A stretch of 64,000 nt of DNA from the NCBI GenBank assembly GCA_045613315.1, contig JAZLAV010000007.1, positions 1,785 to 65,784 of the forward strand, read 5' to 3'. This DNA is from Candidatus Enterousia sp. (lineage in GTDB: Bacteria; Pseudomonadota; Alphaproteobacteria; Rs-D84). Every line of letters begins with the position of its first letter. Within the stretch, counting starts at the first letter, position 1. The notes beneath the pieces were generated by a model, which did not search any database, was not told the DNA's origin, and saw nothing but the letters and a program-made list of their open reading frames with translations. A program made the position numbers and the translations under genes. Shown one piece after another: positions 45,451-64,000 of this stretch.

Positions 45451-45464
45451 TTTACAGCCCCATT

Positions 45465-45986: not shown

Positions 45987-45998
45987 TATGTTTCGTAA

Positions 45999-46403: not shown

Positions 46404-46550
46404 TTTTTGTCCTTTCGTTGTGTGGGTATTATATTACGCACGAATATAAAAATCAAAGGATTATTTACGGGGGCAAAAATGACAAAACGTCAAACGAACG
46501 TGGTGTCGGTGCTAGATAAAAATACCCCCACCAATCGGTGGGGTTTGGTA

Positions 46551-47726: not shown

Positions 47727-48140
47727 TTTATATCCTTTTTTTGCAAAAAAAATACGCAAGCCAAATTCAGTTTGGACTTACGCTAATGCGGCTACACAAC
47801 CATAGGATATTATACAGATTAAAAAAAATAATTCAATTTTTTTGTTGGCGTATAAAAAACGAGCAACCCCCACAAACAAAAACTAGCTAGAAAATTTTGG
47901 ATATTTTGGTAAAGAAATAAAATTGTCATTGTGAAGTTATACCATAATCGTATAACAAATGTATAACTGCGAATATGTAATACGTGTTTAACATTTTGTT
48001 TATTTGTTGGGGGTATTATAGGGTAGTGCGGTGGAAAAGCGTATATAAAACATTGCCGTAGTTGTGGCGGTTTTCTGCGGAAAGTTTCAGATTTGTAATG
48101 ATGTGGGGAGGTGCCACTCTGGCCGTTAACGGGCCGGTCC

Positions 48141-48340
48141 AAAAAATCGTAAAAATTTTATACACGCCTTCGCAATGCCACAGAATCTGCGGGCTTTGGC
48201 AGGTGTAGTTGTGTATTCGCTGTGTAGCAGAATTTCATTGTGTAGCTTTTGTGTAGAAAAAATTGCGCTATCGTGTAGCCACATGTGCCAAAATATACAA
48301 AAACAAGCCATCTAAAAATCTACTATGCGGAATTTTTGTT
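48141..48340 (+). repeat. TGTGTAGC-box module I
   Basis: Six direct boxes start at 48202, 48210, 48221, 48239, 48250 and 48272 (GGTGTAGT, TGTGTATT, TGTGTAGC, TGTGTAGC, TGTGTAGA, CGTGTAGC), preceded by CCACAGAATCTGCGGG. It is about 85-90 percent similar by eye to modules II and III. Confidence 0.8.
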
Positions 48341-48341
48341 T

Positions 48342-48767
48342 TTACAAATGTACGATTTCAACATCTGGAATTTGGCTTGCGATGTATTCAGCCGCTAATC
48401 GTCTGTGACACATATCTGCTGTCTTTTCTGTGCAAAGCAAACATATCCTATCAAGTTTAGATATGTCACAATTCTGTAAAGGATTGCGTTTTTGCAATAA
48501 TTCCCGATATGATCTTTCGTATTCAGACCAAGTAATTTTTTTATCTTTATATTCAGCCAAAATATCCGATGTTGGTGCAAATTCTGGATGATATTCATAA
48601 CGATTGCCCAGCACCGCCGCCAGATTATCACCATTATAATACGGGACATAAGTACTTGTCCGCCAAAGCCGAATATCCCATACGCAACTTATACGCGCTG
48701 CGTCCAATACTTCCAGGAAAACTTCTGGCTTTTTACCACTAAAACCAATCGTAAATATCTTTGTCAT
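48342..48767 (-). CDS. DUF488-family protein (copy 1)
   Basis: MTKIFTIGFSGK..., YEYHPEFAPT..., ICLLCTEKTADMCHRRLAAEYI: the DUF488 pattern including the conserved C..E....CHR. Confidence 0.75.
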   Translation of the reverse strand: MTKIFTIGFSGKKPEVFLEVLDAARISCVWDIRLWRTSTYVPYYNGDNLAAVLGNRYEYHPEFAPTSDILAEYKDKKITWSEYERSYRELLQKRNPLQNCDISKLDRICLLCTEKTADMCHRRLAAEYIASQIPDVEIVHL

Positions 48768-48771
48768 AAAA

Positions 48772-49107
48772 TCAGTATTTAATTTTATCCAGTATCAAAT
48801 AAAAATCAGGAATATTTTTGGGTTTCATACCATTTAATAAATCAACGGAAGCAACAGATCCGAATGGCGCATAAAAATTGTCATTAAATTCATAATATTC
48901 ACGAATTGCCCCATTGATTTTATTTTCTAATTCGGGCATCTGCATATGAATCATCATAGTCCAAACTTTTTCCTGAATTTCATCATATTTATAATTACTA
49001 AATCTGTAATTATCCCAAAAATAAGACAAAATTTGTTTTGCTTGTTTTTCATTTAAATCTTTTATTGATTTTGGAAAATTATAGCGAGGATGCGTAGCCC
49101 GATACAT
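48772..49107 (-). pseudogene. fragment related to the middle of a GH108-type muramidase
   Basis: ATHPRYNFPKSIKDLNEKQAKQILSYFWDNYRF parallels ADHPEFHFPDNVKDLTGEQAQQIYGEDYYDERH of 49301..49789. It lacks the catalytic N-terminus and the PG-binding C-terminus. Confidence 0.45.
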
Positions 49108-49300
49108 ATCAAGTTTTTCTTGATTTACACTATAGGCATTTATACGTCCAGTATAATGGTTGCTTTGCGTATTTTCATATTCAAGTATTTTGTTAAAAAA
49201 TCACTGCGCCTATCGGCAATAACAACCATCGGGAGCAGCAATAATAATACCAATACTAACTTTTTCATACACTTATTATTGCAGGATATACATCAAAAAA

Positions 49301-49789
49301 TCAATATCTATTTGTACGACTTGTCCAATCATCTCCATATTTATCCCATCCAGATAATCCACGCAAATATTCAATTCTGTTTTCTTTTAAATTGTCCATA
49401 AAATCGTCAATTTTATCGTCGGGTATATTGTTCAAGGCATTGATTGTATTATCACCAATTTTACCGTCAACTTTTAAGTTTGCACCCATTGAATCGTTTA
49501 ATGTTTCTTGAACAATTTTTCCTACATTGTTAAAGTTGCTCATAACTCCCATATCAAATACAGCATTCGCAATCCGTTCGTTTTCTATTTCGCCAATATG
49601 GCGTTCGTCATAATAATCTTCACCATAGATTTGCTGTGCTTGTTCGCCAGTTAAATCTTTTACATTATCCGGAAAATGAAACTCTGGATGGTCCGCATTA
49701 TATTTATCCAATGTTGGTTGTGTTATGCCAGAATTTGTTGGTTGGTCTATTATATTTGGGGTGTCAGCATAGCCGCCTTCTTCCGCCAT
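49301..49789 (-). CDS. GH108-type lysozyme with a PG_binding_3 domain (possibly degenerate)
   Basis: EEGGYADTP...NSGITQ (GH108 N-terminal motif, GG to NS variant) and LKVDGKIGDNTINAL (PG_binding_3). The reading frame stays open upstream to 49978 through a MuF-like CEEC...HHPNCRC motif. Confidence 0.55.
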   Translation of the reverse strand: MAEEGGYADTPNIIDQPTNSGITQPTLDKYNADHPEFHFPDNVKDLTGEQAQQIYGEDYYDERHIGEIENERIANAVFDMGVMSNFNNVGKIVQETLNDSMGANLKVDGKIGDNTINALNNIPDDKIDDFMDNLKENRIEYLRGLSGWDKYGDDWTSRTNRY

Positions 49790-49978
49790 AGTTTTATGAA
49801 TAATGTCTTGTTTGCGATTATCTATAACAGGCTTGTCATTATCATCTAATTCAATTTCTTCTATCCAACACCGACAATTTGGGTGGTGTGGGTGTTCTGG
49901 TATATCTTCTCCATTCTCATAAATTGTTTCAGAGTATTCTAGGCATTCTTCACACGTTCTTTCGTCTATTTCTGCGTG

Positions 49979-50206
49979 CTAAATCCAGGCTTTTCTTATT
50001 GCTACGTTGCGTCCAGTTGCATCAATCGTGCTATTGCCATATTTATTTTCAAAATAATTATCAGTATGCAACGATTTTCTAAAGAAGCGTCTTTTACCGT
50101 TAACGTATGGTAATTCAATCATATAATAGAAGATATTTTTACGCAAGATTATTCGTGGTTTTGGTCCAAATGTACCACAGGGCGTATCACACTTTTCAAA
50201 CAACAT
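49979..50206 (-). pseudogene. N-terminal fragment of a tyrosine integrase (arm-binding region)
   Basis: RKNIFYYMIELPYVNGKRRFFRKSLHTDNYFE is typical of integrase N-termini. It ends at a TAG that is in frame with the MuF/GH108 frame downstream. Confidence 0.5.
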
Positions 50207-50533
50207 ACTTTTTAGTCCGTTCGATGTTTAACCAGTGATACAAAAGTGTTGAAAATCCAATGTTTTTGAATTTTTGGGTTTTGGAAATTGCTGTTTCCCA
50301 GCAAAGCCCAAGCCATTTATTCAAAAAATACCATAGAATAAAGAAAACCCAACGATTTCGCTGGGTCTACAATATCATAAAATTTCTTGGCTCACAGGTT
50401 TAAATAATCTTCGAACGACATACAGACAAGATGTCCTAATGATGAAAAATATATTTAACCAAGAAAATCCAATAAAAATTGATACAAGTACTGAAAATCT
50501 AACAAATATTGACTAAAATATGCATCCACCCAA

Positions 50534-50759
50534 CCGACATACGGATTAACAGCAAGCCCGCAGGTTGCCCTGATTTTCTTGGGTTGCAGCGTGTAAGACG
50601 CATGAATCAGCCACTTTTTCGCATATAGCTGTGTAGCCATTGTGTAGCTGTTTTTTTATGTGTAGCTCCTGTGTAGCAAAAAAATTGCACTATCGTGTAG
50701 CCACATGTGCCAAAAACATACAAAAGAGAGAATGCACAAACCAACTTTTACGGAATATT
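50534..50759 (+). repeat. TGTGTAGC-box module II
   Basis: It begins CGACATACGGATTAACAG. Boxes start at 50630, 50641, 50659, 50670 and 50694 with 11/18/11/24 spacing. The tail CACATGTGCCAAAAACATACAAAAGAGAGAATGCACAAA is shared with module III. Confidence 0.8.
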
Positions 50760-51182
50760 TTATAAATGCGTAATTTCAATGTCTGGTAATATTTCTGCAA
50801 TATATTCTGCCGCTAATCGACGATGACACTGTATAGCGGTCTTTTCTGTGCACAGCAAACATATTCTATCAAGTTTAGATATATCGCAATTTTGTAACGG
50901 ATTGCGTTTTTGCAACAATTCACGATACATTTTTTCATATTCAGCCCAGGTGATCTTTTTATCTTTGTATCCTGCCAAGATATCTGATGTTGGCGCAAAC
51001 TCCGGGTGATATTCATAACGATTGCCCAGAACATACGCCAAATTATCACCGTTATAATATGGAACATAAGTACTGGTTCGCCATTGCCGAATATCCCACA
51101 CGCAACTTATGCGTGCCGCGTTCAGCACATCCAGAAATGCTTCTGGGCTTTTACCACTGAAACCAATCGTGAATATCTTTGT
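50760..51182 (-). CDS. DUF488-family protein (copy 2)
   Basis: MTKIFTIGFSGKSPEAFLDVL...ICLLCTEKTAIQCHRRLAAEYI. It is about 80-85 percent identical to copy 1 by eye. Confidence 0.75.
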   Translation of the reverse strand, partial: TKIFTIGFSGKSPEAFLDVLNAARISCVWDIRQWRTSTYVPYYNGDNLAYVLGNRYEYHPEFAPTSDILAGYKDKKITWAEYEKMYRELLQKRNPLQNCDISKLDRICLLCTEKTAIQCHRRLAAEYIAEILPDIEITHL

Positions 51183-51186
51183 CATA

Positions 51187-51837
51187 TCAATACAAAAATA
51201 GCCCATTAAGCATTAAATAGCAATGATTTTCCTGAATCAAAAATTTACGCGCCAAACCAATTCTGCAATGTGCATATTGTGATTCAGCAACCATGTTATT
51301 CAACACAACAACATCTTTAGTTTTATCAAAAATGTCCCGTAAATATTTGCAACTGACTTTCATATCATATTTTTGTTTAGAAAAGTCGGTTATGCTGGCA
51401 CGCAATTTGCCATCTTCTGTAAAAAATTCTATATCTCGTGCAGAAACTACTATTGCCCCAAGTGACGGACATTTTGTATTTTGCAACACATAAGATTTTT
51501 CTTTTACATGATGATTAAATATGGATTGAATATCTTTTGAAACTGTATCCTTTAAACAATCGGCTAATTCTTTGCCTGGTTCAAAGAATTTTATAATTTC
51601 TATGGAATTATAATTTATATTCACATCTTCGGTTCTGTGCGGGTAATCACGTGGTTCATCAAAAGGTTCATTTTCAACCATTATTTGACAATAAGTTTTT
51701 GGAATTTGATTTTCGTCCCAGTATCCACTATCAATCATTAGCCGCTTCATGCGTTTTTCATATGTGTCGAAACCGGCAATACAAAACTTTTCTTTCATAC
51801 ATGTTATATCTGAAATAATAATATTTGATTTTTTCAT
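51187..51837 (-). CDS. hypothetical protein (216 aa), operon partner of DUF488
   Basis: Its stop lies 4 nt before the DUF488 start. Motifs are ISDITCMKEKFCIAGFD and DYPHRTEDVNI. No family recognised. Confidence 0.6.
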   Translation of the reverse strand: MKKSNIIISDITCMKEKFCIAGFDTYEKRMKRLMIDSGYWDENQIPKTYCQIMVENEPFDEPRDYPHRTEDVNINYNSIEIIKFFEPGKELADCLKDTVSKDIQSIFNHHVKEKSYVLQNTKCPSLGAIVVSARDIEFFTEDGKLRASITDFSKQKYDMKVSCKYLRDIFDKTKDVVVLNNMVAESQYAHCRIGLARKFLIQENHCYLMLNGLFLY

Positions 51838-52047
51838 TTTATATCCTTTGTTAAACGAAAAAAAGCCCGCATAAAGCGAGCCATAAAAAACGGCACAAAA
51901 TGTGCCTTTGAAGTTGAGAGCATTATATCACGAAACAACAAAAAAATCAATATGTTTATATGTGTAACGAATATGTCGTATGTTAACAAAATACCTTGCT
52001 TAAATCAGTATAAATGGCTATGCTAGTGATGATTTAATAATGGTGAT

Positions 52048-52332
52048 ATGATGATAAAATCATTTAATTGTCGCGAAACGGAAAAGATCTTTCGGGGTGA
52101 ACGGTCTAAGAAATTCCCAACCGATATTCAGCGACGGGCATTTCAAAAATTGGCTATGCTGGATGCATCTGAAAATGTGGACGATTTGCGTATTCCTCCA
52201 TCCAATATGTTAGAAACCCTGTCTGGTGACCGTAAAGGGCAATGGTCTATTCGTATCAATCATAAATATCGGATTTGTTTTACATGGGCTGACCACGAAG
52301 CAAATAATGTTGAAATAGTAGAATATCATTGA
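52048..52332 (+). CDS. higB: HigB-type toxin (plasmid maintenance system killer, RelE/ParE superfamily)
   Basis: MIKSFNCRETEKIF...LETLSGDRKGQWSIRINHKYRICFTW...VEIVEYH matches the HigB pattern. Confidence 0.85.
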   Translation: MMIKSFNCRETEKIFRGERSKKFPTDIQRRAFQKLAMLDASENVDDLRIPPSNMLETLSGDRKGQWSIRINHKYRICFTWADHEANNVEIVEYH

Positions 52333-52399
52333 AAAAGCGCTTGACTTTTATGTGTTATATATTATATAATACATAACAAGATAAGCAAGAGGTATCAAA

Positions 52400-52729
52400 A
52401 TGTCTAATTATATCGATATTGACCATGTTGGAACAATTTTGCGTGAAGAGTTTATGGAACCGTTGGGGTTGTCCATGAATGCTTTGGCACGTGCGATTGA
52501 TGTCCCGGCAAACTATATTCATGGTATCGTGCATGGAACACGTGGTATTTCTGCTGCAATAGATTTGCGACTTACTCGTTACTTTGGTTTATCCCAAGGA
52601 TACTTTCTGCGTATTCAAACGCATTATGATATGGTGTTGGCCTCTCGTAATATAAGCGATAAAGAACTGGCAAAAATTATCCCACTTGACCGACCGGCAA
52701 ATAGTGATTTGAATGTTGCTGTGATGTAG
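52400..52729 (+). CDS. higA: HigA-type antitoxin (XRE HTH)
   Basis: HVGTILREEFMEPLGLSMNALARAIDVPANYIHGIVHGTRGISAAIDLRLTRYFG matches the HigA/VapI pattern. Confidence 0.85.
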   Translation: MSNYIDIDHVGTILREEFMEPLGLSMNALARAIDVPANYIHGIVHGTRGISAAIDLRLTRYFGLSQGYFLRIQTHYDMVLASRNISDKELAKIIPLDRPANSDLNVAVM

Positions 52730-52925
52730 CGTTGGTTCGTTTTTTGAATGACACTCCCTATGAGGCGTGTTTTTTTATTGTATATGTTGTGTAATGTGCT
52801 TTGTGTAGCTAATATGTAGATTTTTGTTTTTTTGGCGGTGTTCTGCTATAAATATAGAAAATTTGTAGCAGACACACGGACTGCAGTGCCTGTTTCCTGC
52901 AGGTTTTAAGAGTTTTTTTATTGTG

Positions 52926-52947
52926 ACATACGGACTAGTCCGTATGT
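52926..52947. repeat. perfect 22-bp palindrome ACATACGGACTAGTCCGTATGT
   Basis: Read directly from the sequence. The half-site GACATACGGA recurs at the start of modules II (50537) and III (53062, GACATATGGA). Confidence 0.9.
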
Positions 52948-53061
52948 TTAGGGATGTTTTTTGTAAAAATGGCCATTTTTATGCTTTTATAAACAATCAA
53001 TATTTTATCAAAATTTCGCAGAAATCTGCTGTTTTTGCACGTGTAATTTATCTGGCAAAGT

Positions 53062-53290
53062 GACATATGGATTAACAGTGGCCCCCAGAAAATCGCTAAA
53101 TTTTTATACGCGTCTTCGCAACGCCACAGAATCTGCGGGTTTTAGCGTGTGTAGCTGTGTATCCACTGTGTAGCAGAATTTCATTGTGTAGCTTCTGTGT
53201 AGCAAAAAAATTGCACTATCGTGTAGCCACATGTGCCAAAAACATACAAAAGAGAGAATGCACAAAGCAACTTTTACGGAATATTTTTGA
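53062..53290 (+). repeat. TGTGTAGC-box module III
   Basis: It begins GACATATGGATTAACAG, followed by CCACAGAATCTGCGGG. Boxes start at 53148, 53156, 53167, 53185, 53196 and 53220. Confidence 0.8.
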
Positions 53291-53297
53291 TGGTTAT

Positions 53298-53356
53298 TAC
53301 ACAAAAGTCGTCCGGAAAATGTGCTATAAATACACAAAAGTCGTCCGGAAAATGTG
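53298..53356 (+). repeat. two 26-bp direct repeats TACACAAAAGTCGTCCGGAAAATGTG (33-bp period), putative operator or activator sites
   Basis: Exact copies at 53298-53323 and 53331-53356, immediately upstream of a consensus promoter. Confidence 0.85.
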
Positions 53357-53363
53357 TTTTTGG

Positions 53364-53392
53364 TTGATTTTTAGTAAAATTTGATGTATAAT
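53364..53392 (+). promoter_or_regulatory. sigma70-type promoter of the AAA ATPase gene
   Basis: TTGATT (53364-53369), 17-nt spacer, TATAAT (53387-53392). Confidence 0.6.
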
Positions 53393-53414
53393 GCAGTCGG
53401 ATGAAAAGGGGAGA

Positions 53415-54731
53415 ATGATGAAAAGATATGCACTAAAACAATTAAAAGATTGGAAAAATAGCAAGATAAGAAAACCTTTGCTCGTTCAAGGGGCGAGACA
53501 GGTTGGAAAAACTTGGTTATTAAAAGAATTTGGCAGAGAGTGCTACGAAAATACAGCTTATGTTAATTTTTATGATACTCCAGAAGCACATAATGTATTT
53601 GAAGGATCTTATAATGTTGCAAATATAATTTCTGCTCTAGGATCAATCACTAATGAGCAAATTGTTCCAGGTAACACTTTAATAATACTCGATGAAATTC
53701 AAGAATGCGAACGTGCTTTAAACGCTTTAAAATTTTTCAAAGAAAATGCACCGCAATATCATATAGCTGTGGCTGGGAGCCTTTTGGGTGTTGCGCTAAA
53801 CCATAATAAAATGTCTTTTCCTGTCGGACAAGTGGATTTTATGACGCTACATCCATTAAGTTTTTGTGAGTTTTTAGAAGCGGTTGGTAAAGAGGTGTTA
53901 GCAAAAAATATACAAGAAAATAATATTGATGTGTTGCGTATGCTTCATAATGACAGTGTTCAATTACTAAAACAGTATATGGTTATAGGTGGTATGCCGG
54001 AAGCTGTCAAAACCTTTATAGAAACAAGAGATTACGAGAGTGCACAAAAGATTCATAAAGATATTTTGGTCAGCTATCAAAATGATTTCGCTAAATATAC
54101 AACAGGGAATAATGCGGCAAAAATAATGGCTGTTTGGAACTCTGTTCCTGTACAATTAGCAAAACAAACTAGAAAAACGAAAAGATTCTTTTTCTCAGAC
54201 GTATTCCCTGGTGCCAGATCTCGTAACTTAGAAGATGCGATAGAATGGTTAAGATTATCGGGGCTTATACACTTAGTTCCAAAAGTATCAAAGCCTAGTT
54301 TACCTTTGGCTAGTTATATAGAATCTGGAGTGTTTAAGGTATATATGATAGATACGGGCTTGTTAAGCACCATGTCTGGTTTAGCAGCAAAGACAGTTAT
54401 CGATGGCGATCGGATATTTCAAGAGTTTAAAGGTTCTCTGACTGAACAATACGTATTGCAAGAGTTGGTACTGAATGATATACGGTTGAATTATTGGGCA
54501 TCTGAAAGTGAATCAGAGATAGATTTTATGTTCCAACATGAAGGCGACATTGTACCAGTTGAGGTTAAGGCGAATATAAGTTTGCAGGCAAAAAGTTTGC
54601 ATGTTTATCGGCAGAAGTATAAACCAAAATTCTCTGTGCGAACGTCTTTAGCGGGGTACGAAGTAAACAACGGCTTGTACAATATCCCATTATACATGAT
54701 AGGGAATGTACTAAGAATTATTTCGGAATAG
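53415..54731 (+). CDS. AAA-family ATPase (AAA_14 plus DUF4143) with a PD-(D/E)xK-like C-terminus
   Basis: Walker A GARQVGKTW, Walker B LIILDEIQ, C-terminal SESEIDFMFQHEGDIVPVEVKAN. RBS is GAAAAGGGGAGA. Confidence 0.75.
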   Translation: MMKRYALKQLKDWKNSKIRKPLLVQGARQVGKTWLLKEFGRECYENTAYVNFYDTPEAHNVFEGSYNVANIISALGSITNEQIVPGNTLIILDEIQECERALNALKFFKENAPQYHIAVAGSLLGVALNHNKMSFPVGQVDFMTLHPLSFCEFLEAVGKEVLAKNIQENNIDVLRMLHNDSVQLLKQYMVIGGMPEAVKTFIETRDYESAQKIHKDILVSYQNDFAKYTTGNNAAKIMAVWNSVPVQLAKQTRKTKRFFFSDVFPGARSRNLEDAIEWLRLSGLIHLVPKVSKPSLPLASYIESGVFKVYMIDTGLLSTMSGLAAKTVIDGDRIFQEFKGSLTEQYVLQELVLNDIRLNYWASESESEIDFMFQHEGDIVPVEVKANISLQAKSLHVYRQKYKPKFSVRTSLAGYEVNNGLYNIPLYMIGNVLRIISE

Positions 54732-55372
54732 TTTGCTATTGCGTTTATCTGCTTCTTCTGTAGAACAAAGGTTTGCTTCTGCATAATTACGGCTGTCACA
54801 AAAGTCGTCACAGTCCCATTCTAGCCCACGATCAAATTGGTCGCGTGGAGTTAACTTTGGTTTAAACGTTGAAAAAGATTGGTGCCTATCCGGTATTGCT
54901 CGATATCTTAGCATACACATCTGATCGCACAGTTTTTGTTGTCGCACATGGTTATATCTGGCATTTTTGTCTCCTTTGCTGTGTGTATTAGCAGGTTAAG
55001 TTGGTTTAATCAACATAAAACACACTTATTTTTGCGCTGGTATTTTTATAGAAAAAAGCACACATTTTTCTATAAAAATCGATTCGTTTGAAAGTGATAA
55101 TTTTTTTGTTGGGTGACGCCGATGAACAAATTTTATAAAATTTAACAAAACTGTATTTAGATGCGTTTGAATATGCTTTTATATGCTTTTGATACATTAT
55201 GATACAATTTCATTGCTAAAAAAAGTTATATTTTCTGCGGCTTTTACAAGACTTTTATTTTTTAGCATGCTATAATTTGCATGTAAGGATATCAAAAATT
55301 GCTGTGAGTTTAGATGATACTTTATAGCGTTTTTGAACCGAACAAAACCATCAAAACCCAAAGGAGAAAAAC

Positions 55373-55636
55373 ATGGAACATGAGTTCTTGAATTATGGGG
55401 GGATGGAGAGAGAAGAAACAGATTACAGATTCATAAATATAAAGGAAGACGTTTTGGAAGGTAGACTTCTTAAACCAAGAGAAGCGGCTGCATATCTCGG
55501 ATCATCTGTTTCGGCATTAAGCCAATATCGTGCGCTGGGGATTGGACCAGAATACTTCAAAGTCGGCAAAATGGTACGATATCGCAGGTCTGATATAGAC
55601 AAGTGGCTTGAGCAGAAGAAAAGCAGCAAAAAATAG
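55373..55636 (+). CDS. AlpA/excisionase-family HTH protein
   Basis: LLKPREAAAYLGSSVSALSQYRALGIGPEYFKVGKMVRYRRSDIDKWL. It lies directly upstream of the integrase. An extended -10 TGCTATAAT sits at about 55267-55275. Confidence 0.65.
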   Translation: MEHEFLNYGGMEREETDYRFINIKEDVLEGRLLKPREAAAYLGSSVSALSQYRALGIGPEYFKVGKMVRYRRSDIDKWLEQKKSSKK

Positions 55637-55702
55637 TTGTTTCTACTGGATATTCCGTATTTATCGTGCATTGTTGTGTAGCTGTAACAAAGGAGTACAC
55701 AT

Positions 55703-56911
55703 ATGGCAGAACAATGGAAATGTTATACCAAGGCGTTTCGCGATACATGGATACGTCTGTTAAATTCGGATATCAATTTGCAGGTCAGTGATGGGACAAT
55801 ACCGGGGCTTTTCCTGCGATATTCGGCGGCAACACGCGCCATTAGGTTTTTTCTGGGCTGTAAAATCGATAACAAGAAATGTAATTTATATATTGGGCGA
55901 TATAACGATTATTCAATCAAAGATATTCGCGATATGGCGTGGAATATGCGACACCAGCTTGCCCAGGGACATGATCCACGTCGTGAGAAAATAGAACAAC
56001 AAATGAAAGAAAAAGAGGCTCTTGGCGAAAAATTCCAAGACCTTTTCCCGCAATATATGGATAAATATTCCAAGATTTATAAGAAACCAAGAACACAAGA
56101 TTCCAACTGGGGACAATATCGACTTTATATCGGCCCGCTATTTGGCAAGATGTACATGCGTCAGATAGAAGAAAAGCATGTAATGGACGCTTATACCAAA
56201 TGGGTAAAAAGGACGTCGTTTTCAACAGCCAACAAAGCATTATCACTATTATCTAACTTTTGGGACTGGTGCGAAATGTACAAATACGTAGATCGCAATA
56301 CAAACCCTTGCAAATATGTCCGCAAGGGCGCAAATAAAGTTTATAAACCGCAAATATTGGATCAAGAAGGATACAGGGCATTATCGCATGCGCTGGATGT
56401 TGGACCAGAAGTGTCTAAGATGCATCCGCGTTTGTTCAATGCATTGCGAGTGTTGATGCTAACTGGCTGTCGTGCATCTGAAATCACAGGACTAGAAGTG
56501 GACGAGCTTGTCCTTATGCATAAAGTGATACATTTGAAAGACAGTAAAACAGGAGCCCGAGATGTGAAACTGTCTGATGCGGTTATACCATATTTACAAA
56601 CTGCGTTGGATGAAGCTGTTGCACTAGGTAGCAAATATGTATTCCCAGGTGTTGGTAATATACGACGTCCGATAAATAATATCCGCAAACCGTTTGAATG
56701 GGCGCTTGAATATGCAAAGTTGCCACACATGCGGATACACGACCTGAGACACTCGTTCATCAGTATGGGGGCGAATATCGGCGAAAATATGGCCGCCATG
56801 AAGGAGGCAGCAGGCCACAGTCGCATAACCACTACCGAAGGCTATACTCATATCATGGACAGCAGTACTTACAAAGCCATCAATAACGTTGCTAATGCAA
56901 TATGTGGTTAA
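55703..56911 (+). CDS. int: tyrosine site-specific integrase (P4-like)
   Basis: C-terminal catalytic region TGCRASEI, HDLRHSFISMGAN and GHSRITTTEGYTH. A TGTGTAGC box (55675-55682) lies 20 bp upstream of the ATG. Confidence 0.9.
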   Translation: MAEQWKCYTKAFRDTWIRLLNSDINLQVSDGTIPGLFLRYSAATRAIRFFLGCKIDNKKCNLYIGRYNDYSIKDIRDMAWNMRHQLAQGHDPRREKIEQQMKEKEALGEKFQDLFPQYMDKYSKIYKKPRTQDSNWGQYRLYIGPLFGKMYMRQIEEKHVMDAYTKWVKRTSFSTANKALSLLSNFWDWCEMYKYVDRNTNPCKYVRKGANKVYKPQILDQEGYRALSHALDVGPEVSKMHPRLFNALRVLMLTGCRASEITGLEVDELVLMHKVIHLKDSKTGARDVKLSDAVIPYLQTALDEAVALGSKYVFPGVGNIRRPINNIRKPFEWALEYAKLPHMRIHDLRHSFISMGANIGENMAAMKEAAGHSRITTTEGYTHIMDSSTYKAINNVANAICG

Positions 56912-56970
56912 TTGTGCGCTGGTGCATCGTGGTGAGTCGCTTTTACCCCTTTTGGGGCTTTTTATTTAGG

Positions 56971-57104
56971 GGGTAACGGCGAGCGCAACACCTTGTCACA
57001 CACAGCAGTCCAAAATGTGTTCGCAGTTCGCACTTTGGGGTTGTAAACCGCAGAAATCTAAGAAATATGGGGTGCGAACACATGCGAACACCTAGTGCGA
57101 ACAC
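56971..57104 (+). repeat. iteron cassette A (unit GTTCGCAC)
   Basis: GGGTAACGGCGAGCGC (56971-56986); GTTCGCAGTTCGCAC (57019-57033); about 38-bp spacer containing CGCAGAAATCT; inverted GTGCGAAC at 57072, TGCGAAC at 57083, GTGCGAAC at 57095. Confidence 0.8.
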
Positions 57105-57118
57105 ATATCATCAAATTA

Positions 57119-57403
57119 TTAAAAAGTATATTTGCGACCTTTGTTCTGGCCGGTGGCAGTCAAAAAGCCTTTATTTACCAAAACAGTAAACAATTGACGG
57201 ACTCGTTGGGGTGATTTACCAGTCATCCTTACCGCGTCTGCGGCGGCGATTTCACCTTTGCTAATAATGACTGCTGCGATGGTTACAAAGAACCTGCGTT
57301 CGGTATCGCTCAGCATATCGATAGATTTATCGCTAGTTATATCGCTAACTTTTTTATCGCTACTAGCGATATATTGGTCACAATTGGAATTTTTATCATA
57401 CAT
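57119..57403 (-). CDS. small winged-helix DNA-binding protein
   Basis: The C-terminal AADAVRMTGKSPQRVRQLFTVLVNKGFLTATGQNKGRKYTF is wHTH-like. It lies between iteron cassettes A and B. Confidence 0.5.
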   Translation of the reverse strand: MYDKNSNCDQYIASSDKKVSDITSDKSIDMLSDTERRFFVTIAAVIISKGEIAAADAVRMTGKSPQRVRQLFTVLVNKGFLTATGQNKGRKYTF

Positions 57404-57534
57404 AAATTTGTGCCTTTTCTTTGATTCTAACCCATTTTTACGGAAAATCTAGTTTTTTAATAATTGCATAACAGCCCTGTATCGTGATGTATCATCGAAT
57501 ATAAAAAGGTACTGTCGGGACATTTTTCTACTGA

Positions 57535-57664
57535 GGGTAACGGCGAGCGAGGCACTTCGCTAGCGTCAGGAATAAAAAAATGGTTCGCAGGTTCGCACTT
57601 TGGGGATTTATTGCGTAAAAACAAAGCATTAAGTGCGAACCTAAGGTGCGAACCAGGTTCGCAC
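57535..57664 (+). repeat. iteron cassette B (unit GGTTCGCAC)
   Basis: GGGTAACGGCGAGCG (57535-57549); GGTTCGCAGGTTCGCAC (57582-57598); spacer; inverted GTGCGAACC at 57633 and 57646; direct GGTTCGCAC at 57656. Confidence 0.8.
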
Positions 57665-57945
57665 CCTAAATACAAAACAAATTCTCTGATTTCAATTCTG
57701 AAATCAATACTGAAATCAGATATGATATCGTGAGTAATAGAAGAAAGAAGAAAAGAAAATAAAATATAAAATAAATAAAAATAAAATTAAAAGAAGAGAA
57801 AGAAGTAATGTGTGTTCAAATTGTTGAAAAATTGTTGAAAACTCACGTACATCTGTTGGTATAAGTTATAATGCTTTGCAATGTGTTTATAGCAATCTTA
57901 ATCAATAATAATGTCAATAATCTATGGTAATGTATTGCTTTGCAA

Positions 57946-58074
57946 GGGTGATTACTAGCGCAACACCTTGTCACACACTGCAACAAAAAATAGGTGCGCA
58001 GGTGCGCACTTTGGATATTTATTCCGTAAAAACAAATAACTAAGTGCGTACCAAGGGTGCGTACCAAGTGCGCA
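57946..58074 (+). repeat. iteron cassette C (unit GGTGCGCAC / GTGCGTACC)
   Basis: GGGTGATTACTAGCGC plus AACACCTTGTCACACAC, shared with cassette A; GGTGCGCAGGTGCGCAC (57993-58009); spacer; GTGCGTACC at 58044 and 58057; GTGCGCA at 58068. Confidence 0.8.
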
Positions 58075-58113
58075 TCAAAACAAAAAAGGTACTGTGACGG
58101 AAGTTTTTATCAA

Positions 58114-58251
58114 GGGTAACGGCGAGCGCGGCACCTCGCTACACACAGAAATAAATTTTAAGCCGCAGGCCGCACTTTTTCTTTCTGTGTTGCAGAAATC
58201 TGGGATTTTAGTGCGGCTTTGTGCCGCGGCAGTGCCGCACTTATGCCGCAC
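58114..58251 (+). repeat. iteron cassette D (unit GCCGCAC)
   Basis: GGGTAACGGCGAGCGC (58114-58129); GCCGCAGGCCGCAC (58162-58175); spacer with TGCAGAAATCT; GTGCGGC at 58211, GTGCCGC at 58221, GTGCCGCAC at 58232, TGCCGCAC at 58244. Confidence 0.8.
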
Positions 58252-58602
58252 CAACACCTTAAATTAGCCTGAAATTAGACTTGATATTAGCGGTAAAGAT
58301 AAAGAAAAGTAGTATAGAAAAAGATAATGATAAAGATAAAAAAATTGATAATTGTAAAGAAAAAGAAAGTAGTATATACCGGTTCACAGTTGAAAATTTG
58401 TTGAAAAATTACGTGCATATGTTGGTATAAATTGTAATGTGTTAATCTGTTTTCAGATAAATCTATATCCAAAAATTTCTTATTTTTTTATCCAAATGTA
58501 TCGTGGTGTATCATAATGTGTCAACCCTAAAACGCGCAGAAAATAAGGACTTTACAAATCAAATTTTTTCATGCATGGTGGTGATGAAGCAAAGGATTTT
58601 TT

Positions 58603-58983
58603 ATGAACGATTTTGAGTTTGTTGTTGATTTGTTAAGCAAAACAGGAGCTGTTGGCAATTGCCTTATAGACCTGGAAATAACAAAACGGAATTTTATCGC
58701 TTTAAAGGGTAAAAATGATGTGCGGATACAAAAACAACTCAACATCAGTTTGCAAAGATATCACAATGAAATTGACGAACTGCACAGAATGGTTGGTGTC
58801 AATCTGCCATCACCAAACGAACCAATAAACCATAACCCCAGAAACGAATTGGAATACATAACTGACAGAATCCCAGCATATGTTGCTTTGCGTGAATTAA
58901 AAGGCGAAGTTAGAGAACGTACAATAGAATACCTGTTACCCAGATTATATCCAGAATGTAAAAACGAGGGAGACATAGGATAA
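58603..58983 (+). CDS. hypothetical protein (126 aa), first gene of the R-M-like operon
   Basis: RBS AAAGGATTTTTT before the ATG. No family recognised. Confidence 0.55.
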   Translation: MNDFEFVVDLLSKTGAVGNCLIDLEITKRNFIALKGKNDVRIQKQLNISLQRYHNEIDELHRMVGVNLPSPNEPINHNPRNELEYITDRIPAYVALRELKGEVRERTIEYLLPRLYPECKNEGDIG

Positions 58984-59011
58984 TATGGGATGTTCTACTT
59001 GACTTTATCCC

Positions 59012-60040
59012 TTGTTTTGGGCTAAGTTTTTAAGAAAGGAAAGGTTAGATCTCGTGGAATATGAAATTGATGTAAAAGAGAACATGATTTTGCAAAAGTG
59101 GCCTGATTTATTGGGAATCCTTTTGCGTGACCATACCACGGGAAAAAACATATTCTGGGCTACGGATCTTTATGAACAACAATATGGCCACCGTTACGCA
59201 TTTCGTTCTCAAATAATGCCAGAGTTAATCACTGGTGAAAATGGCAACATTATTAAGCCGCGTGTTGCAAAAACGAAGAAAGCACAACAAGACAGAGTTA
59301 AAGATAAGGCTGAAGTTTTTACACCGGCATGGATTTGCAATAAACAAAACAACCTGATTGATAACGATTGGTTCGGTTATGAAGGTGTTTTTAATAACGA
59401 AAAAGATGATAATACTTGGATGGCCACCAAGAAGCCTGTTGTATTCCCAGAAAACAAAACATGGGTTGATTATGTTCGCGAATTGCGTTTAGAAGTTGCT
59501 TGTGGTGAAGCACCGTATCTTGTTAGCCGTTACGATATCACCACAGGCAAAAAAATAAAATTACAAAATAGAATTGGATTATTGGATCGTAAAATACGCA
59601 TAGTAAACGAAAACGCGGCCAGCGATAGTGAGTGGCTTGCGATGGTAAAATGGGCATTCAAAAGCACATATGGATACGAATGGCAAGGAGATAATTTATT
59701 ACTTGCTCGCGAAAATCTGTTGTTTACATTTATCGATTATTTTGAAGACAGATTTGGCAAAGAACCAGATCTGGATTTGTTAAAAGAAATAGCAGAAATA
59801 ATCTCTTGGAACATCTGGCAGATGGATGGCATCCGTGGTGTGCTGCCATGTACATGTTGTAATTCAAAATATATAGATTTGTTCGGCGAAAAGACAATGG
59901 ATTGTTGTCTTGGATGCAAAACGGGTGACATTCATAGCCATAACGGAAAGTACTGCTATATCGGTGATTGGAACAAAATGACATCGAAAGGCCAACCAAC
60001 AAGAATTAAATATATTTCATTACTAAAGGGTAAAAAATGA
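59012..60040 (+). CDS. methyltransferase-fold-like protein with degenerate motifs and a C-terminal Cys/His cluster
   Basis: AEVFTPAWICNKQNN resembles MTase motif X. RLEVACGEAPYLVS sits where motif I (LEPACGSGAFL) would be. There is no NPPY. The C-terminus reads CTCCNSKY...CCLGCKTGDIHSHNGKYC. The track start is TTG; GTG 59054 after GGAAAGG is an alternative. Confidence 0.6.
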   Translation: MFWAKFLRKERLDLVEYEIDVKENMILQKWPDLLGILLRDHTTGKNIFWATDLYEQQYGHRYAFRSQIMPELITGENGNIIKPRVAKTKKAQQDRVKDKAEVFTPAWICNKQNNLIDNDWFGYEGVFNNEKDDNTWMATKKPVVFPENKTWVDYVRELRLEVACGEAPYLVSRYDITTGKKIKLQNRIGLLDRKIRIVNENAASDSEWLAMVKWAFKSTYGYEWQGDNLLLARENLLFTFIDYFEDRFGKEPDLDLLKEIAEIISWNIWQMDGIRGVLPCTCCNSKYIDLFGEKTMDCCLGCKTGDIHSHNGKYCYIGDWNKMTSKGQPTRIKYISLLKGKK

Positions 60041-63000
60041 GTAACTTTGAATCAGCTTTCAGTGGATATAAACTTATTTACGTTTTTAGCATGCCTTACG
60101 CAGATCACGAGGGCGCGTTAAAGATTGGTGAAGCAACAATAAACACTGATGGTTCGCCAGATGCTCTGACACCAAATTGCCAAGAGTTAAATGCTGCCGC
60201 TAACAAACGTATTAAGCAATATACACAAACAGCAGGCCTGAGGTACGATTTGTTATACACAGAACTTGCTAAGACAAACGCTGGTAAGGCTTTTTCTGAT
60301 CATGATGTTCATAAAGTTTTAAATCGTTCAAACATAAAGAAAAAACAATTTGAAGAAGTTGATGGATCTAAAGAATGGTATATAGTTGGTTTGGATGTTG
60401 TCAAAAATGCGATACAAGCCGTTAAAGAAGATAGAAAATCATTAGATCCGAACGAAGTGATTTCGTCTTGTACACCAATTCATTTGCGTGATGAACAGAA
60501 AGATGCAGTAAAGAAGACAATTAAACGCTTCAAATCTGGACACAATCGTATGTTGTGGTACGCAAAAATGCGTTTTGGTAAAACTTTGACAGCAATGTCT
60601 TTAGTTGGCGAGCTTGGGTTAAAGCGCACGATAATTATTACACACAGACCGGTGGTAAAAGATGGTTGGTATGACGATTTTAAAAAGCTGTTTTGTGATA
60701 AACCAGAATATAAATTTGCATCTCGTACCGTTGGGGAAAATTTTGCAGATGTAGAACGTGATGCGAAGCACGATAGATGTAAATATTTGTATTTTGCGTC
60801 TATCCAAGATCTGCGTGGAGCAGAAGCCGCTGGTGGGAAATTTGATAAAAATGATGCCATCTTCAGTACCGATTGGGATATGGTCATTATTGATGAAGCA
60901 CACGAAGGAACTCAAACAGAACTTGGCAAAAACATAGCCGAATTGTTAGTCAAAGACAAAACATACTTGTTGCAATTGTCGGGTACACCGTTCAACTTGT
61001 TGGATAATATAGACGAGGACGAGGTCTATACCTGGGATTATATTATGGAACAACGTGCCAAAGCAGACTGGCATAAAAAACATCTTGGTGAACCAAATCC
61101 GTACGCATCATTACCTAAGATGAATATATTCACTTACGATATGAGCCAAATAGAGGGTGGTAAATATGGATCTTATACCGAAGATAAATATTTCAACTTT
61201 TCTGAATTTTTCAAGACCAAACCTAACGGTGATTTTGTTCATGAAGACGATATACGTGGTTTCTTGAACTTATTAGTGAATGATAAAACAGATAGCAATT
61301 ATCCTTTTTCTAAACAGGAATATCGTGATAATTTCAGACATTCTTTGTGGATGGTACCTGGCGTTAAAGAAGCTAAAGCACTAAGTAAATTGCTTAAAGA
61401 ACACCCTGTGTTTGGAAAGTTCAATATCGCTAACGTGGCTGGTGATGGTGACGAAGAAACAAACTTTAAAGATGCGCTAGATTTAGTGCGTAAAGCGATT
61501 ACAGATCATCCACAAGACACATATTCCATAACGATTTCTTGTGGTCGTTTAACAACAGGTGTAACTGTACCAGAATGGACAGCGGTGTTTATGTTGGCTG
61601 GTGCATACTCAACGGCTGCATCAACATATATGCAAACTATATTCCGTGTTCAATCTGCGGCAAATATCAATGGGCGTATCAAAGAAAATTGCTTTGTGTT
61701 TGATTTTGCACCGGATCGTACATTGAAATGTGTTGCGGAATCAGTTAAAGTTTCAACTCGTGCCGGTAAAACGCGTGCTACAGATCGTGTAATAATGGAA
61801 GATTTGTTGCAATTCTGCCCGATTATTTCGGTAACAGGTTCACATATGAACCCATATAATGTCAATGGTATGCTTGAACAGTTAAAGCGTGCGTATATTG
61901 ATCGAATTGTTACGCATGGATTTGAAGATCCAAACCTGTTCAATCGCGATATGTTGTTGCAGTTGGACAAATCGGCAGTTGAAAAATTTGACGCACTACA
62001 ACAATTGGTCGGAAGTTCCACGTCTAAAAGTTCTGACACAGATAAAGCAAAAAAGATTATTGTTACAGATAACGGCATGAATCCAGATGGTGCAAAACAA
62101 ACCAATCAGCCGCCGCAAACACCTCTAACAGATGCTGAACGTGCTGCGCTGGAAGAACGTAAAGAGGCTAAATCTAAACGTGAAAAGGCGTTAAAAGCTT
62201 TAAAAGGTGTTGCTATTCGTATACCCATGTTGATTTATGGTGCAGATATTGATGTGAACCAAGATATTGACTTGGAACAGTTTGTCGACATGGTTGATCC
62301 GATTTCTTGGGATGAATTTATGCCACGTGGTATAGATAAAGAAGTATTCAAACAATTTATTCCATATTTTGATCGTGATGCATTTATTGGTGCTGGTAAA
62401 GAGATACGGCAACGTATTAAACGTGCTGACCGTATGGAACCAACAACCAGAACGCGTTTTATGACCGCACTGTTCTCCACCTTTAAGAACCCTGACAAGG
62501 AAACAGTTTTAACACCATGGCGCGTTGTAAATATGCATATGGGTGATTGTTTGGGCGGATATAATTTCTATGACTCGGAATACAAAAATCCAATTCCAGA
62601 TACCGAAGATGTAAGGTATATGGACATCCCAGATGTCACAGACGAAGTGTTTGGGCCAAAAGACACCAAGATTTTAGAAATAAATTCAAAATCTGGATTA
62701 TATCCATTATACGTTACATATACAATTTGGCGCAAAAGATGTACGGAAAATAATATTGATATAACAAAATTAACCGAAGATGATACGTTGTTTGCCAAGG
62801 CTCTTGAAACATGGGATAGCGTTGTTCAGAATAATGTTTATATCATATGTAAAACTCAAATGGCAAAAAGCATTACACAAAGGACATTATGTGGGTATCG
62901 TGATGTAAAAATAAATGCACATGCTTTTGATAATTTGATTACAATGATTAAAGATGGTAAAAGTAATAAGTTTATAGAAAAAGCTACCTCTTGTGATACA

Positions 63001-64000
63001 TACAATTCTAAATGCAAGGAGAAGAATATGAAATTTAACGCAGTAGTAGGAAACCCTCCTTATCAGGTTAGTGATGGTGGTGGTACTGGAGATAGTGCAA
63101 AACCAATATATAATTTATTTGTAGATGCAGCTAAATTGTTAAACCCACAATTCGTATCTATGATTATGCCTTCTAGATGGTTAAAAAAGGGTAAGGGTTT
63201 AGACTCATTTAGAGCAGAAATGATGTCTGATACAAGAATACGGACAATTCATGATTTTGCTGACGAACATGAGTGTTTTCCAGGAGGTGTGCATATTGAT
63301 GGTGGTATAATGTTCTTTTTATGGGACAAGCATTATGATGGTAAAGTAAAATACTTATTCAAGCCGGCTAATGGTGAATTAGAGGTTTCTGAAAGGTTCT
63401 TAAAAACAGATCTTTCAAGCACGGTTGTGAGAGACGCCAGACAAATATCCATTCTAGAGAAAATAGCAAAACATAAAAAAACGTCATTTAGTCAGCTTGT
63501 ATCTATAAGAAATAATTATGGTTTTGCAACGGATTTATTCAATAGACCGCAAAATTATCCAGACGCACATCTTTGTTTGGAAAAACAAAACAAAAATTTT
63601 GTAAAAATATATGGCGTAAAGGGTAACAAAGGCGGAGCTAAACGTGTAATAGGCTATGTCGATAAAAATAGTATAAAAAAAGATTTGTCTTCAGTAAATC
63701 TGTATAAATTGTTCTTTTCTTATGCTTACTCAACTGGGGCAACTGTGCCACCGGAAATTATTGTTGGGAAACCAGGAGAAATTGCCACAGAAACGTTTTT
63801 ACGTATAGGACCATTTGATAATGAATTATATTGTAAGAACTGTTTAAATTACATGAAATCGAAGTTCTTTAGAGCATTGTTATTTTTTAACAGAATATCA
63901 AAAAATTCGTCACAGACTACTTTTGAACTTATACCTGTTCAAGATTTCACAGATAAGTCTGACATAGATTGGTCTAAATCTATTGCTGAAATAGACAAAC
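60037..64000 (+). CDS. fusion protein of T5orf172/GIY-YIG-like domain, SF2 helicase and gamma-class N6-adenine DNA methyltransferase (Type ISP-like); 3' end beyond the window
   Basis: Absent from the ORF track because it has no stop in the window. I read 1,321 codons without a stop from ATG 60037, which overlaps the upstream TGA. N-terminus: KLIYVFSMP..GALKIGEAT...DHDVHKVL...GSKEWYIV. Helicase: LWYAKMRFGKTLTA (motif I), VIIDEAHEG (II), LSGTP (III), TISCGRLTTGVTVPEW and QTIFRV (VI). Methyltransferase: ILEINSKSGLYPL (degenerate motif I) and FNAVVGNPPYQ (motif IV). Confidence 0.8.
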   Translation, partial: MSNFESAFSGYKLIYVFSMPYADHEGALKIGEATINTDGSPDALTPNCQELNAAANKRIKQYTQTAGLRYDLLYTELAKTNAGKAFSDHDVHKVLNRSNIKKKQFEEVDGSKEWYIVGLDVVKNAIQAVKEDRKSLDPNEVISSCTPIHLRDEQKDAVKKTIKRFKSGHNRMLWYAKMRFGKTLTAMSLVGELGLKRTIIITHRPVVKDGWYDDFKKLFCDKPEYKFASRTVGENFADVERDAKHDRCKYLYFASIQDLRGAEAAGGKFDKNDAIFSTDWDMVIIDEAHEGTQTELGKNIAELLVKDKTYLLQLSGTPFNLLDNIDEDEVYTWDYIMEQRAKADWHKKHLGEPNPYASLPKMNIFTYDMSQIEGGKYGSYTEDKYFNFSEFFKTKPNGDFVHEDDIRGFLNLLVNDKTDSNYPFSKQEYRDNFRHSLWMVPGVKEAKALSKLLKEHPVFGKFNIANVAGDGDEETNFKDALDLVRKAITDHPQDTYSITISCGRLTTGVTVPEWTAVFMLAGAYSTAASTYMQTIFRVQSAANINGRIKENCFVFDFAPDRTLKCVAESVKVSTRAGKTRATDRVIMEDLLQFCPIISVTGSHMNPYNVNGMLEQLKRAYIDRIVTHGFEDPNLFNRDMLLQLDKSAVEKFDALQQLVGSSTSKSSDTDKAKKIIVTDNGMNPDGAKQTNQPPQTPLTDAERAALEERKEAKSKREKALKALKGVAIRIPMLIYGADIDVNQDIDLEQFVDMVDPISWDEFMPRGIDKEVFKQFIPYFDRDAFIGAGKEIRQRIKRADRMEPTTRTRFMTALFSTFKNPDKETVLTPWRVVNMHMGDCLGGYNFYDSEYKNPIPDTEDVRYMDIPDVTDEVFGPKDTKILEINSKSGLYPLYVTYTIWRKRCTENNIDITKLTEDDTLFAKALETWDSVVQNNVYIICKTQMAKSITQRTLCGYRDVKINAHAFDNLITMIKDGKSNKFIEKATSCDTYNSKCKEKNMKFNAVVGNPPYQVSDGGGTGDSAKPIYNLFVDAAKLLNPQFVSMIMPSRWLKKGKGLDSFRAEMMSDTRIRTIHDFADEHECFPGGVHIDGGIMFFLWDKHYDGKVKYLFKPANGELEVSERFLKTDLSSTVVRDARQISILEKIAKHKKTSFSQLVSIRNNYGFATDLFNRPQNYPDAHLCLEKQNKNFVKIYGVKGNKGGAKRVIGYVDKNSIKKDLSSVNLYKLFFSYAYSTGATVPPEIIVGKPGEIATETFLRIGPFDNELYCKNCLNYMKSKFFRALLFFNRISKNSSQTTFELIPVQDFTDKSDIDWSKSIAEIDK

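Follow-up and report, generated by a model that had tools for sequence, protein, structure and literature searches.

The stretch of 64,000 nt analysed here (the window; contig C7:1785-65784) belongs to a Candidatus Enterousia genome (order Rs-D84, Alphaproteobacteria), a metagenome-assembled genome (MAG) of 826 kb in 22 contigs that is 94.5% complete; Candidatus Enterousia are farm-animal gut bacteria with genomes below 1 Mb (PMC12306168). The A+T-rich stretch that begins near 47.76 kb is very probably an island anchored at a tRNA-Asn gene, built by repeated site-specific integration and reshaped by later internal deletion and cargo exchange. This view is founded on the anatomy of the attachment sites, homology breakpoints at their core, a layout that recurs in relatives, and similarity across species. 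Positions are window-equivalent coordinates (contig C7 minus 1784); C7 runs 9.6 kb past the window and ends at 73642. Genes were called with Pfam, PADLOC and PHROGs profiles and tRNAs with ARAGORN and Rfam, and integrases were sought by a genome-wide six-frame PF00589 scan and by tblastn with the resident integrase. Handles of the form G0xx denote genomes of relatives and Lxxx loci fetched from them; the features are compiled in Table 1.

The original prediction had placed the right end of the island beyond the window and had seen no tRNA at its left junction. Both statements hold, the nearest tRNA on the left being a tRNA-Lys gene (40695-40771); the picture had nevertheless to be corrected, as extension along the contig brought up the anchor at the right side, a tRNA-Asn(GTT) gene 5 kb beyond the window whose 3' end faces the island. 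It is the only tRNA-Asn among the 44 tRNA genes of the assembly and is 100% identical to that of other genus members; the Rfam scan of the window and its extension returned nothing besides tRNAs. When the 826-kb genome was searched outside tRNA genes, the best match to tRNA-Asn was 53059-53079 and the second best 50536-50552. These two core copies stand directly left of modules 3 and 2, two of the three repeated modules described below, in direct orientation relative to tRNA-Asn, and the sequence of the latter, GACATACGGATTAACAG, extends from the anticodon loop through the 3' strand of the stem into the variable loop. The core of module 1, TTAACGG, is a variant and restricted to the loop. The island is therefore bounded by an intact tRNA gene at one end and direct-orientation fragments of the same tRNA at the opposite end, which are cores only in this genome, full 3' halves occurring in relatives only. 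A 16-nt near-copy of the att core was also noticed at C8:41081-41096.

The three homologous modules of about 200 bp that had been pointed out earlier are real (approximately 48095-48300, 50536-50761 and 53059-53300; 80-97% alike in parts), and they carry repeated copies of a short box, TGTGTAGC. The window contains 14 of these boxes where 0.92 are expected, a number reached in 0 of 100 shuffles. All 14 fall within 47791-58145, with two further boxes at 68937 and 68948, which gives 16 across 21 kb (47.8-69 kb) against 3 in the other 750 kb or so of the genome, the chance density being about 0.014 per kb. A reverse-oriented box reported at the left edge (47791-47798, minus strand) is present, isolated and at the compositional edge. 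Boxes sit on both arms of the sites and upstream of the integrase gene: the P' arm has five to six, the P arm has two exact copies, and the motif is distinct from the core, as in an attP of the lambda type. Judged from sequence, the modules are predicted left attachment sites, each made of a core and a box-bearing arm, and the tRNA preceded by two boxes is the predicted right site. The P arm beside the tRNA is 84-90% identical in G019, G004, G057 and G058 (90% in the DNA fetched from G057 and G058). The flank left of core 3 (52802-53058) is probably the P arm of the preceding segment, and its box-to-core distance of 257-259 nt is kept in L124, L125, L158 and G058. Inside this flank lies a short palindromic remnant that resembles an anticodon stem (about 52923-52947); this remnant and another possible one at about 50408-50435 are at most candidate extra cores, their scores being at genome background. 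The box ahead of the integrase gene, whose position is kept in relatives with 93-100% identical integrases, would provide autoregulation.

The same layout is met throughout the lineage. The integrase family (82-100% identical) was found in 37 species-level genomes, all of this lineage; a gene with an HTH_17 domain precedes the integrase at every relative locus, and a core with its module lies 0.5-3 kb upstream of the HTH_17/integrase pair wherever the flank is available. In G011, G016 and G019, and at nine of 24 integrase loci, a complete tRNA-Asn 3' half ending in TTAACAG precedes the module; about fifteen left sites at integrase loci have the core only, which is also all that this genome and G002 keep at the left site. 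In every case aligned, the similarity between left-site variants ends right after TTAACAG. The right arms join the full tRNA in this genome and G019, a displaced 3' half followed by unrelated sequence in G004, and a 5' half in G044, G007 and G002, always at the same TTAACAG. Since all joints fall at this heptamer, the alignment breakpoints point to a crossover within the 7 nt of the anticodon loop. In G057, G058, G059 and G061, which have long contigs, 13-17 kb separate the integrase from a downstream tRNA-Asn of like orientation, and G007, G002 and G044 have arrays of 38-nt copies of the 5' half. A homologue of the segment beyond the tRNA (S4) is closed in G007:C2 by boxes and a copy of the tRNA 5' half, so that in this genus elements accumulate on both sides of the tRNA. 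The 3' halves in the fetched loci vary only at two T-stem pairs, with three compensatory states (ACTGG/CCAGT, GCTGG/CCAGC and GTTGG/CCAAC) seen in full genes and displaced halves, and most 5'-half copies are 100% identical, those in G007:C1 and one in G019:C7 being 95-97% identical.

The integrase contains Arm-DNA-bind_3, SAM-like/central and catalytic domains, and its catalytic R, HxxR, H and Y are present in an alignment to XerA (5hxy). It is the only one that the six-frame scan and tblastn found in the island; the "integrase fragment" of the original gene list was not found, the rest of that list being borne out by Pfam and PADLOC. The open reading frame (ORF) considered for that fragment, 49979-50206, has no resemblance to an integrase; together with the GH108 gene it forms a broken copy (49301-50206) of a MuF-like/GH108/PG_binding_3 gene whose 308-aa product is intact in G013. 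In several relatives, on the other hand, truncated or interrupted integrase copies stand beside an intact HTH_17 gene (L159/L122 in G017:C17, 2409-2597; L157; L109), and recombinase decay is therefore common in this element family. A second integrase family, represented by L094 (G005:C8, 8889-10030), L110 (G014) and L121 (G007:C15), also has Arm-DNA-bind_3, is about 23% identical to the resident integrase and 75-82% among its members, and adjoins tRNA-Asn cores or halves. With two families beside the same tRNA, at least two integrase lineages therefore use tRNA-Asn. Along these lines, the HTH_17 and integrase pairs of L098 (G022:C33, 10115-11817) and L109 (G044:C7, 5708-6438), 45-53% identical to the resident pair, lie 5' of tRNA-Asn or of a 38-nt 5'-half copy, which suggests that these elements bring along a 5' half as a replacement, presumably together with the tRNA promoter.

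In the proposed mechanism, the integrase and the HTH_17 excisionase-like protein would recombine DNA at the anticodon loop TTAACAG, with the N-terminal arm-binding domain of the integrase bound to the phased TGTGTAGC boxes as arm-type sites. Segment S3 (53059-69139) comprises the left site, the excisionase-like gene, the integrase, cargo, the P arm and, to complete the gene, the tRNA 3' half. No other segment has the full set of parts; S3 may still be active and could excise as a circle. S1 and S2 (2.4 and 2.5 kb) would be integrase-less, att-bounded remnants or cassettes, and S0 on the left and S4 beyond the tRNA further accreted segments. Positions 51-76 of tRNA-Asn have no copy outside the gene itself in the 94.5%-complete assembly. 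Given this single 3' half, the loss of S3 should destroy the only tRNA-Asn: recombination between a module and the tRNA would here leave the tRNA 5' half joined to non-tRNA DNA, and excision would be harmful by truncating tRNA-Asn.

Cross-species comparison adds the evidence of movement. Integrase identity across species is 90-99%, HigA 98%, the 216-aa ORF 98-99% and the restriction enzyme 91-96%, far above the 70-80% of DnaB in the genomes used for this comparison, and some of the island's DNA is therefore transferred horizontally. In L123 the identity is 97% from 55075 onward; homology starts at 53061, two bases into core 3, and the left flank is unrelated; the interval 53288-55075, which includes the PDC-S01 gene, is replaced there by other DNA, and the same slot is used in L124. 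The slot-swapped elements compared are 93-97% identical on both sides of 53288-55075. Comparison of L123 and L124 therefore speaks for two kinds of recent event, site-specific exchange at the core and the replacement of cargo on the inner side of the P' arm. Further variable cargo lies beyond 58.6 kb, with restriction-modification genes here and NUDIX plus Schlafen helicase genes in relatives. These observations, with the core and arm anatomy and the layout in relatives, support the earlier suggestion that related integrative elements accreted in tandem, the modules being their att regions.

Composition and synteny define the extent of the island. Its G+C content is 0.366 within the window (47760-64000) and 0.363 when counted on to the contig end, against 0.444 in the rest of the genome; 26-kb background intervals have a mean of 0.438 (sd 0.016, minimum 0.389). 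The tetranucleotide L1 distance is 0.384 for the island and 0.087 ± 0.037 (maximum 0.22) for the background. Both profiles agree with the A+T-rich stretch described from about 47.76 kb, and the compositional step is followed by low G+C past tRNA-Asn to the contig end. The deviation is thus strong, and the block is patchy instead of syntenic in all relatives, a module being present in 5 of 24 other genus genomes. A left edge at 47760 stands as far as composition is concerned, but not for synteny: with most relatives synteny stops after a small gene ending at 44985, where the variable region starts. The MFS gene that follows had no match in the 40 genus genomes searched, and the part of S0 from 44986 to 47760 has a G+C of 0.417, near that of the host. 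In G005 and G022, the small gene that ends at 44985 has a homologue, accompanied by that of the 227-aa gene of 42987-43670, which is followed after 1.4-6 kb by tRNA-Asn fragments, and in G014 a homologue of the 227-aa gene lies 2.9 kb from a tRNA-Asn fragment. The G007:C1 homologue of the right end of S0 abuts TTAACAG and a tRNA-Asn 5' half. In G003 and G017 the fetched DNA has a tRNA-Asn without element signs, whose 5' side adjoins the genes found on contig C16 of the present assembly; no tRNA fragment that could mark a right outer attachment site was found at the searched end of C16. The whole array probably spans 44985 to an unassembled junction with C16.

Two observations concern this left region. 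The block 45043-46403 (two paralogous small ORFs and a BamE-like gene) was found in only three genomes of 41 searched, and in the other two, the closest relatives G005 and G010, it sits at another locus, between genes that are adjacent on contig C18 of the present assembly (31575/31589); its place beside the island reflects either translocation into the hot spot or an assembly problem. In the closest relative, a FolD gene (L094, G005:C8, 7594-8430) separates the att core from the homologue of the 44985 gene; tblastn gave no FolD match anywhere in the present assembly.

Several points weigh against the integration history proposed here. Cores 2 and 3 have non-tRNA sequence on their left, and no displaced fragment is present that would restore the tRNA gene on excision. 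The left flanks were considered as decayed tRNA 3' halves, and the idea was rejected: the best ungapped match is 13/27, equalled in 24 of 2000 shuffles, and the resemblance is still weaker in the flanks of relatives. Core-only left sites with the same flank are common to several species; the array may therefore include old, fixed parts that are not mobile at present. The outer left end (44985-48100) contains neither a displaced tRNA 3' half nor a recognisable attachment site, and the left boundary is therefore drawn from synteny and composition only. Finally, the order of the array derives from one assembly, a 22-contig MAG, and the contig stops 4.5 kb past the tRNA.

Among the alternatives, the one that fares best regards S1, S2 and similar 2-4-kb units in relatives as mobile integrase-less cassettes, captured and mobilised in trans by the resident integrase in the manner of an integron-like platform, instead of decayed full elements; it is considered unlikely. 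A unit of core, module, DUF488 and 216-aa ORF with 98-99% amino acid identity does occur at different positions in different species, and in L140 and L142 its DUF488 and 216-aa genes stand directly beside the integrase module. In G007, G044 and G002 there are arrays of 2-4-kb units that have tRNA halves and boxes at their ends, and elements that are otherwise 93-97% identical differ by an exchange of gene-sized cargo just inside the P' arm. Full elements reduced by deletion would look the same, however, the swap of 53288-55075 is not bounded by cores, and the integrase is not of integron type, scoring 38.6 bits with TIGR02249 against a cut-off of 265 and having a P4-like domain set. There is only a small chance that the tRNA-Asn locus as a whole is a gene-capture platform, in which the P4-like integrase and the TGTGTAGC arm sites insert, excise and reshuffle 2-4-kb cassettes. 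Such a platform would parallel the integron in function with a tRNA-derived site and a different recombinase family, many of its cassettes would carry defence or toxin-antitoxin genes, and the element-borne 3' half of an essential tRNA would lock it in place. It is not needed to explain the data.

A more doubtful proposal is that the modules are regulatory operator or promoter arrays, for HTH_17 or another repressor, that spread with DUF488 by segmental duplication, their likeness to tRNA being incidental. A box only 21 nt ahead of the start codon of the integrase gene has the look of autoregulation, and a DUF488 paralogue follows modules 1 and 2 each, as duplication would give; none follows module 3, though, and boxes are also found on the tRNA-adjacent arm. 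It also speaks against incidental likeness that modules abut tRNA-Asn halves exactly at the anticodon loop in many independent genomes, and that the homology of near-identical elements begins at the core. Regulatory and arm-site roles of the boxes are, in any case, not mutually exclusive. It is highly improbable that errors of metagenome assembly or binning attached the low-G+C part to the host contig as foreign DNA: the genome is a MAG, the compositional step is sharp and the gene families are common in many gut bacteria, yet the step falls within a single contig, the genome has no other tRNA-Asn and this one matches that of the genus, the same integrase, modules and cargo accompany the same tRNA in dozens of independent MAGs of this lineage only, and the 44985 gene and/or the 227-aa gene recur near tRNA-Asn fragments in G005, G022 and G014. 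Hardly any probability attaches to the boxes being replication-origin iterons of an integrated plasmid-like element, for although they are phased direct repeats with 11-nt spacing and extra repeat units lie at 56971-58169, Pfam and PHROGs found no replication initiator, primase or partition gene in the island, and the arrays flank the core on both sides, like arm-type sites.

The tRNA-anchored island can be set beside known systems. Hudson, Lau and Williams 2015 (PMC4383910), citing Williams 2002, treat tRNA-gene islands including tandem arrays. Of the 3919 islands in Islander, 2083 belong to the anticodon-centred crossover class, the commonest sublocation; tandem arrays of at least two number 125, and 5' fragments, the rarer arrangement, occur in 159 of the 3919, each tandem member being required to have its own integrase (PMC4383910). 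The present island shares with these a tyrosine integrase, an intact tRNA at one end with direct-orientation fragments at the other, and an anticodon-centred crossover. It differs in that the fragments are reduced to a core of 17-21 nt, with the displaced 3' half missing in this genome, and in that the tRNA has segments to its left and right; as an integrase is kept in just one of the four or more segments, the tandem rule would not call this array. P4-type (Arm-DNA-bind_3/DUF4102) islands are found at enterobacterial asn tRNA genes, the Yersinia high-pathogenicity island being an example, and duplicate about 17-20 nt of the tRNA 3' end. They resemble the present element in integrase domain architecture, tRNA-Asn target and AlpA-like HTH partner; unlike in those islands, the crossover here lies in the anticodon loop, the cargo consists of defence genes and the host is a gut alphaproteobacterium with a genome of 0.83 Mb. 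Accretion is also known for ICESt1/ICESt3 and CIMEs of Streptococcus thermophilus at the 3' end of fda. By analogy, related elements in tandem at one site and integrase-less, att-flanked remnants, possibly mobilised in trans, are common to both, whereas the present island has no conjugation genes and a tRNA gene as its target. In E. coli, Rousset et al. reportedly described in 2022 that P4-like satellites and P2-like prophages have hot spots of defence genes. A conserved integrative backbone with a swap slot (here 53288-55075) is the common trait; unlike P4-like satellites, the present island has no primase, capsid-size or packaging functions.

The island is not an integron, a conjugative element or a recognisable prophage or satellite. 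The modules are direct-repeat arrays without an inverted repeat of at least 30 nt as expected of integron attC. Among the ORFs from 46.5 kb to the contig end, Pfam and PHROGs gave no relaxase, coupling protein or type IV secretion gene, and no capsid, terminase, primase or other phage-module gene; the functional PHROG matches are the integrase and the excisionase only, and nothing phage-like is left except the broken MuF-like/GH108 gene. A search of the viral contig collection gave no relatives of the integrase. As to novelty, tRNA-linked islands are already known to target anticodon loops, to form tandem arrays, to occur as 5'-fragment islands, to pair a P4-like integrase with an AlpA-like protein and to carry defence genes (PMC4383910). 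Less ordinary are the integrase-less, att-bounded units of 2.4-2.5 kb, the cargo slot, and the way in which the tRNA half apparently locks the island in place. The analysis provides a precise hot-spot map (core, arms, integrase, cargo slots and outer limits) for a little-studied gut lineage with reduced genomes, in which at least 26 kb at one locus, about 3% of the genome, is horizontally exchanged DNA consisting mostly of anti-phage defence genes. The predicted recombination site TTAACAG and the arm motif may offer an integration tool for these uncultured organisms, and an element that supplies the sole 3' half of an essential tRNA suggests a simple route to island fixation.

Table 1. Segments, attachment-site parts and genes of the tRNA-Asn island (window-equivalent coordinates).
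Feature	Position	Strand	Description
S0	44986-48104		three small genes 45043-46403 (-), last BamE-like; MFS transporter 46551-47759 (-); P-arm-like end
P-arm-like right end of S0	47925-48104	+	76% over 179 nt to a G007:C1 stretch
Module 1 + S1	48105-50535		DUF488a, GH108 debris; no integrase
Module 1	48105-48300	+	TTAACGG core and P' arm; 2 exact TGTGTAGC, further GTGTAG variants
DUF488a	48342-48767	-	Pfam
Weaker GH108-like piece	48772-49107	-	
GH108 + PG_binding_3	49301-49789	-	Pfam
Core 2 + module 2 + S2	50536-53058		DUF488b, 216-aa ORF, HigBA, conserved 257-nt flank; no integrase
Core copy 2	50536-50552	+	GACATACGGATTAACAG; 17/17 to tRNA-Asn positions 32-48
Module 2 P' arm	50553-50761	+	four exact TGTGTAGC, spacing 11, 18, 11; GTGTAGC at 50695
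DUF488b	50760-51206	-	Pfam
216-aa ORF	51187-51837	-	
HigB	52048-52332	+	
HigA-like HTH_3	52400-52729	+	
Left flank of core 3	52802-53058	+	about 257 nt; TGTGTAGC at 52802, ATATGTAG at 52812
Core 3 + module 3 + S3	53059-69139		16.1 kb; holds the island's only integrase
Core copy 3	53059-53079	+	AGTGACATATGGATTAACAGT; 20/21 to tRNA-Asn anticodon region
Module 3 P' arm	53080-53300	+	four exact TGTGTAGC; GTGTAGC at 53221
AAA_14/DUF4143 ATPase	53391-54731	+	PADLOC candidate defence family PDC-S01; cargo slot just inside P' arm
HTH_17 (AlpA/excisionase-like)	55373-55636	+	Pfam 41.1 bits; PHROG 66 "excisionase and transcriptional regulator"
TGTGTAGC box	55675-55682	+	21 nt upstream of integrase start codon
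Tyrosine integrase	55703-56911	+	PF13356 36.6, PF22022 28.6, PF14659 27.0, PF00589 69.6 bits (PF00589 cut-off 27.1)
Repeat region	56971-58169		four related units of about 90 nt, start-to-start spacing 564, 411, 168
Restriction-modification cargo of S3	starts 58603	+	includes 126-aa ORF
Type II methyltransferase	59012-60040	+	Pfam/PADLOC
ResIII + Eco57I fusion	60037-64074	+	1345 aa; ends past window
151-aa ORF	64089-64544		
AAA_13	64483-66867		PADLOC PDC-S06/PrrC-like
111-aa ORF	66924-67259		
DUF4238	67265-68239	-	
150-aa ORF	68282-68734	-	
P arm	68900-69063		TGTGTAGC at 68937 and 68948, about 120 nt left of tRNA-Asn
tRNA-Asn(GTT)	69064-69139	-	ARAGORN and Rfam, 74.1 bits; right attachment site (predicted)
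S4	69140-73642 (contig end)		beyond tRNA
Two GGTGTAGAC repeats of S4	near 69253-69275		
NUDIX (S4)	69508-69900		
Schlafen-type helicase (S4)	69897-71867		PDC-S41
DUF2130 (S4)	71857-73086		

Within the segments, the two DUF488 copies are 88% identical, and NCBIfam gave no finer names for the island proteins. The repeat units of 56971-58169 lie between the integrase and the restriction-modification genes and overlap small minus-strand ORFs, one of which, 57119-57403 (-), is kept in relatives, as is the position of a reverse TGTGTAGC box at 58138.

Elsewhere in the window, a 421-aa ORF without a Pfam match (40953-42218) follows directly on the tRNA-Lys(TTT) gene and is missing in the closest relative G005, where the tRNA-Lys directly precedes the homologue of 42266-42994; the region 40772-42271 may be a second small tRNA-linked insertion. 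More low-G+C patches (0.33-0.39) are present at 31001-33000, 15001-16000 and 1-2000, and 1-kb intervals below 0.39 G+C number 15 on contig C18 and nine on C8; these may represent further islands.

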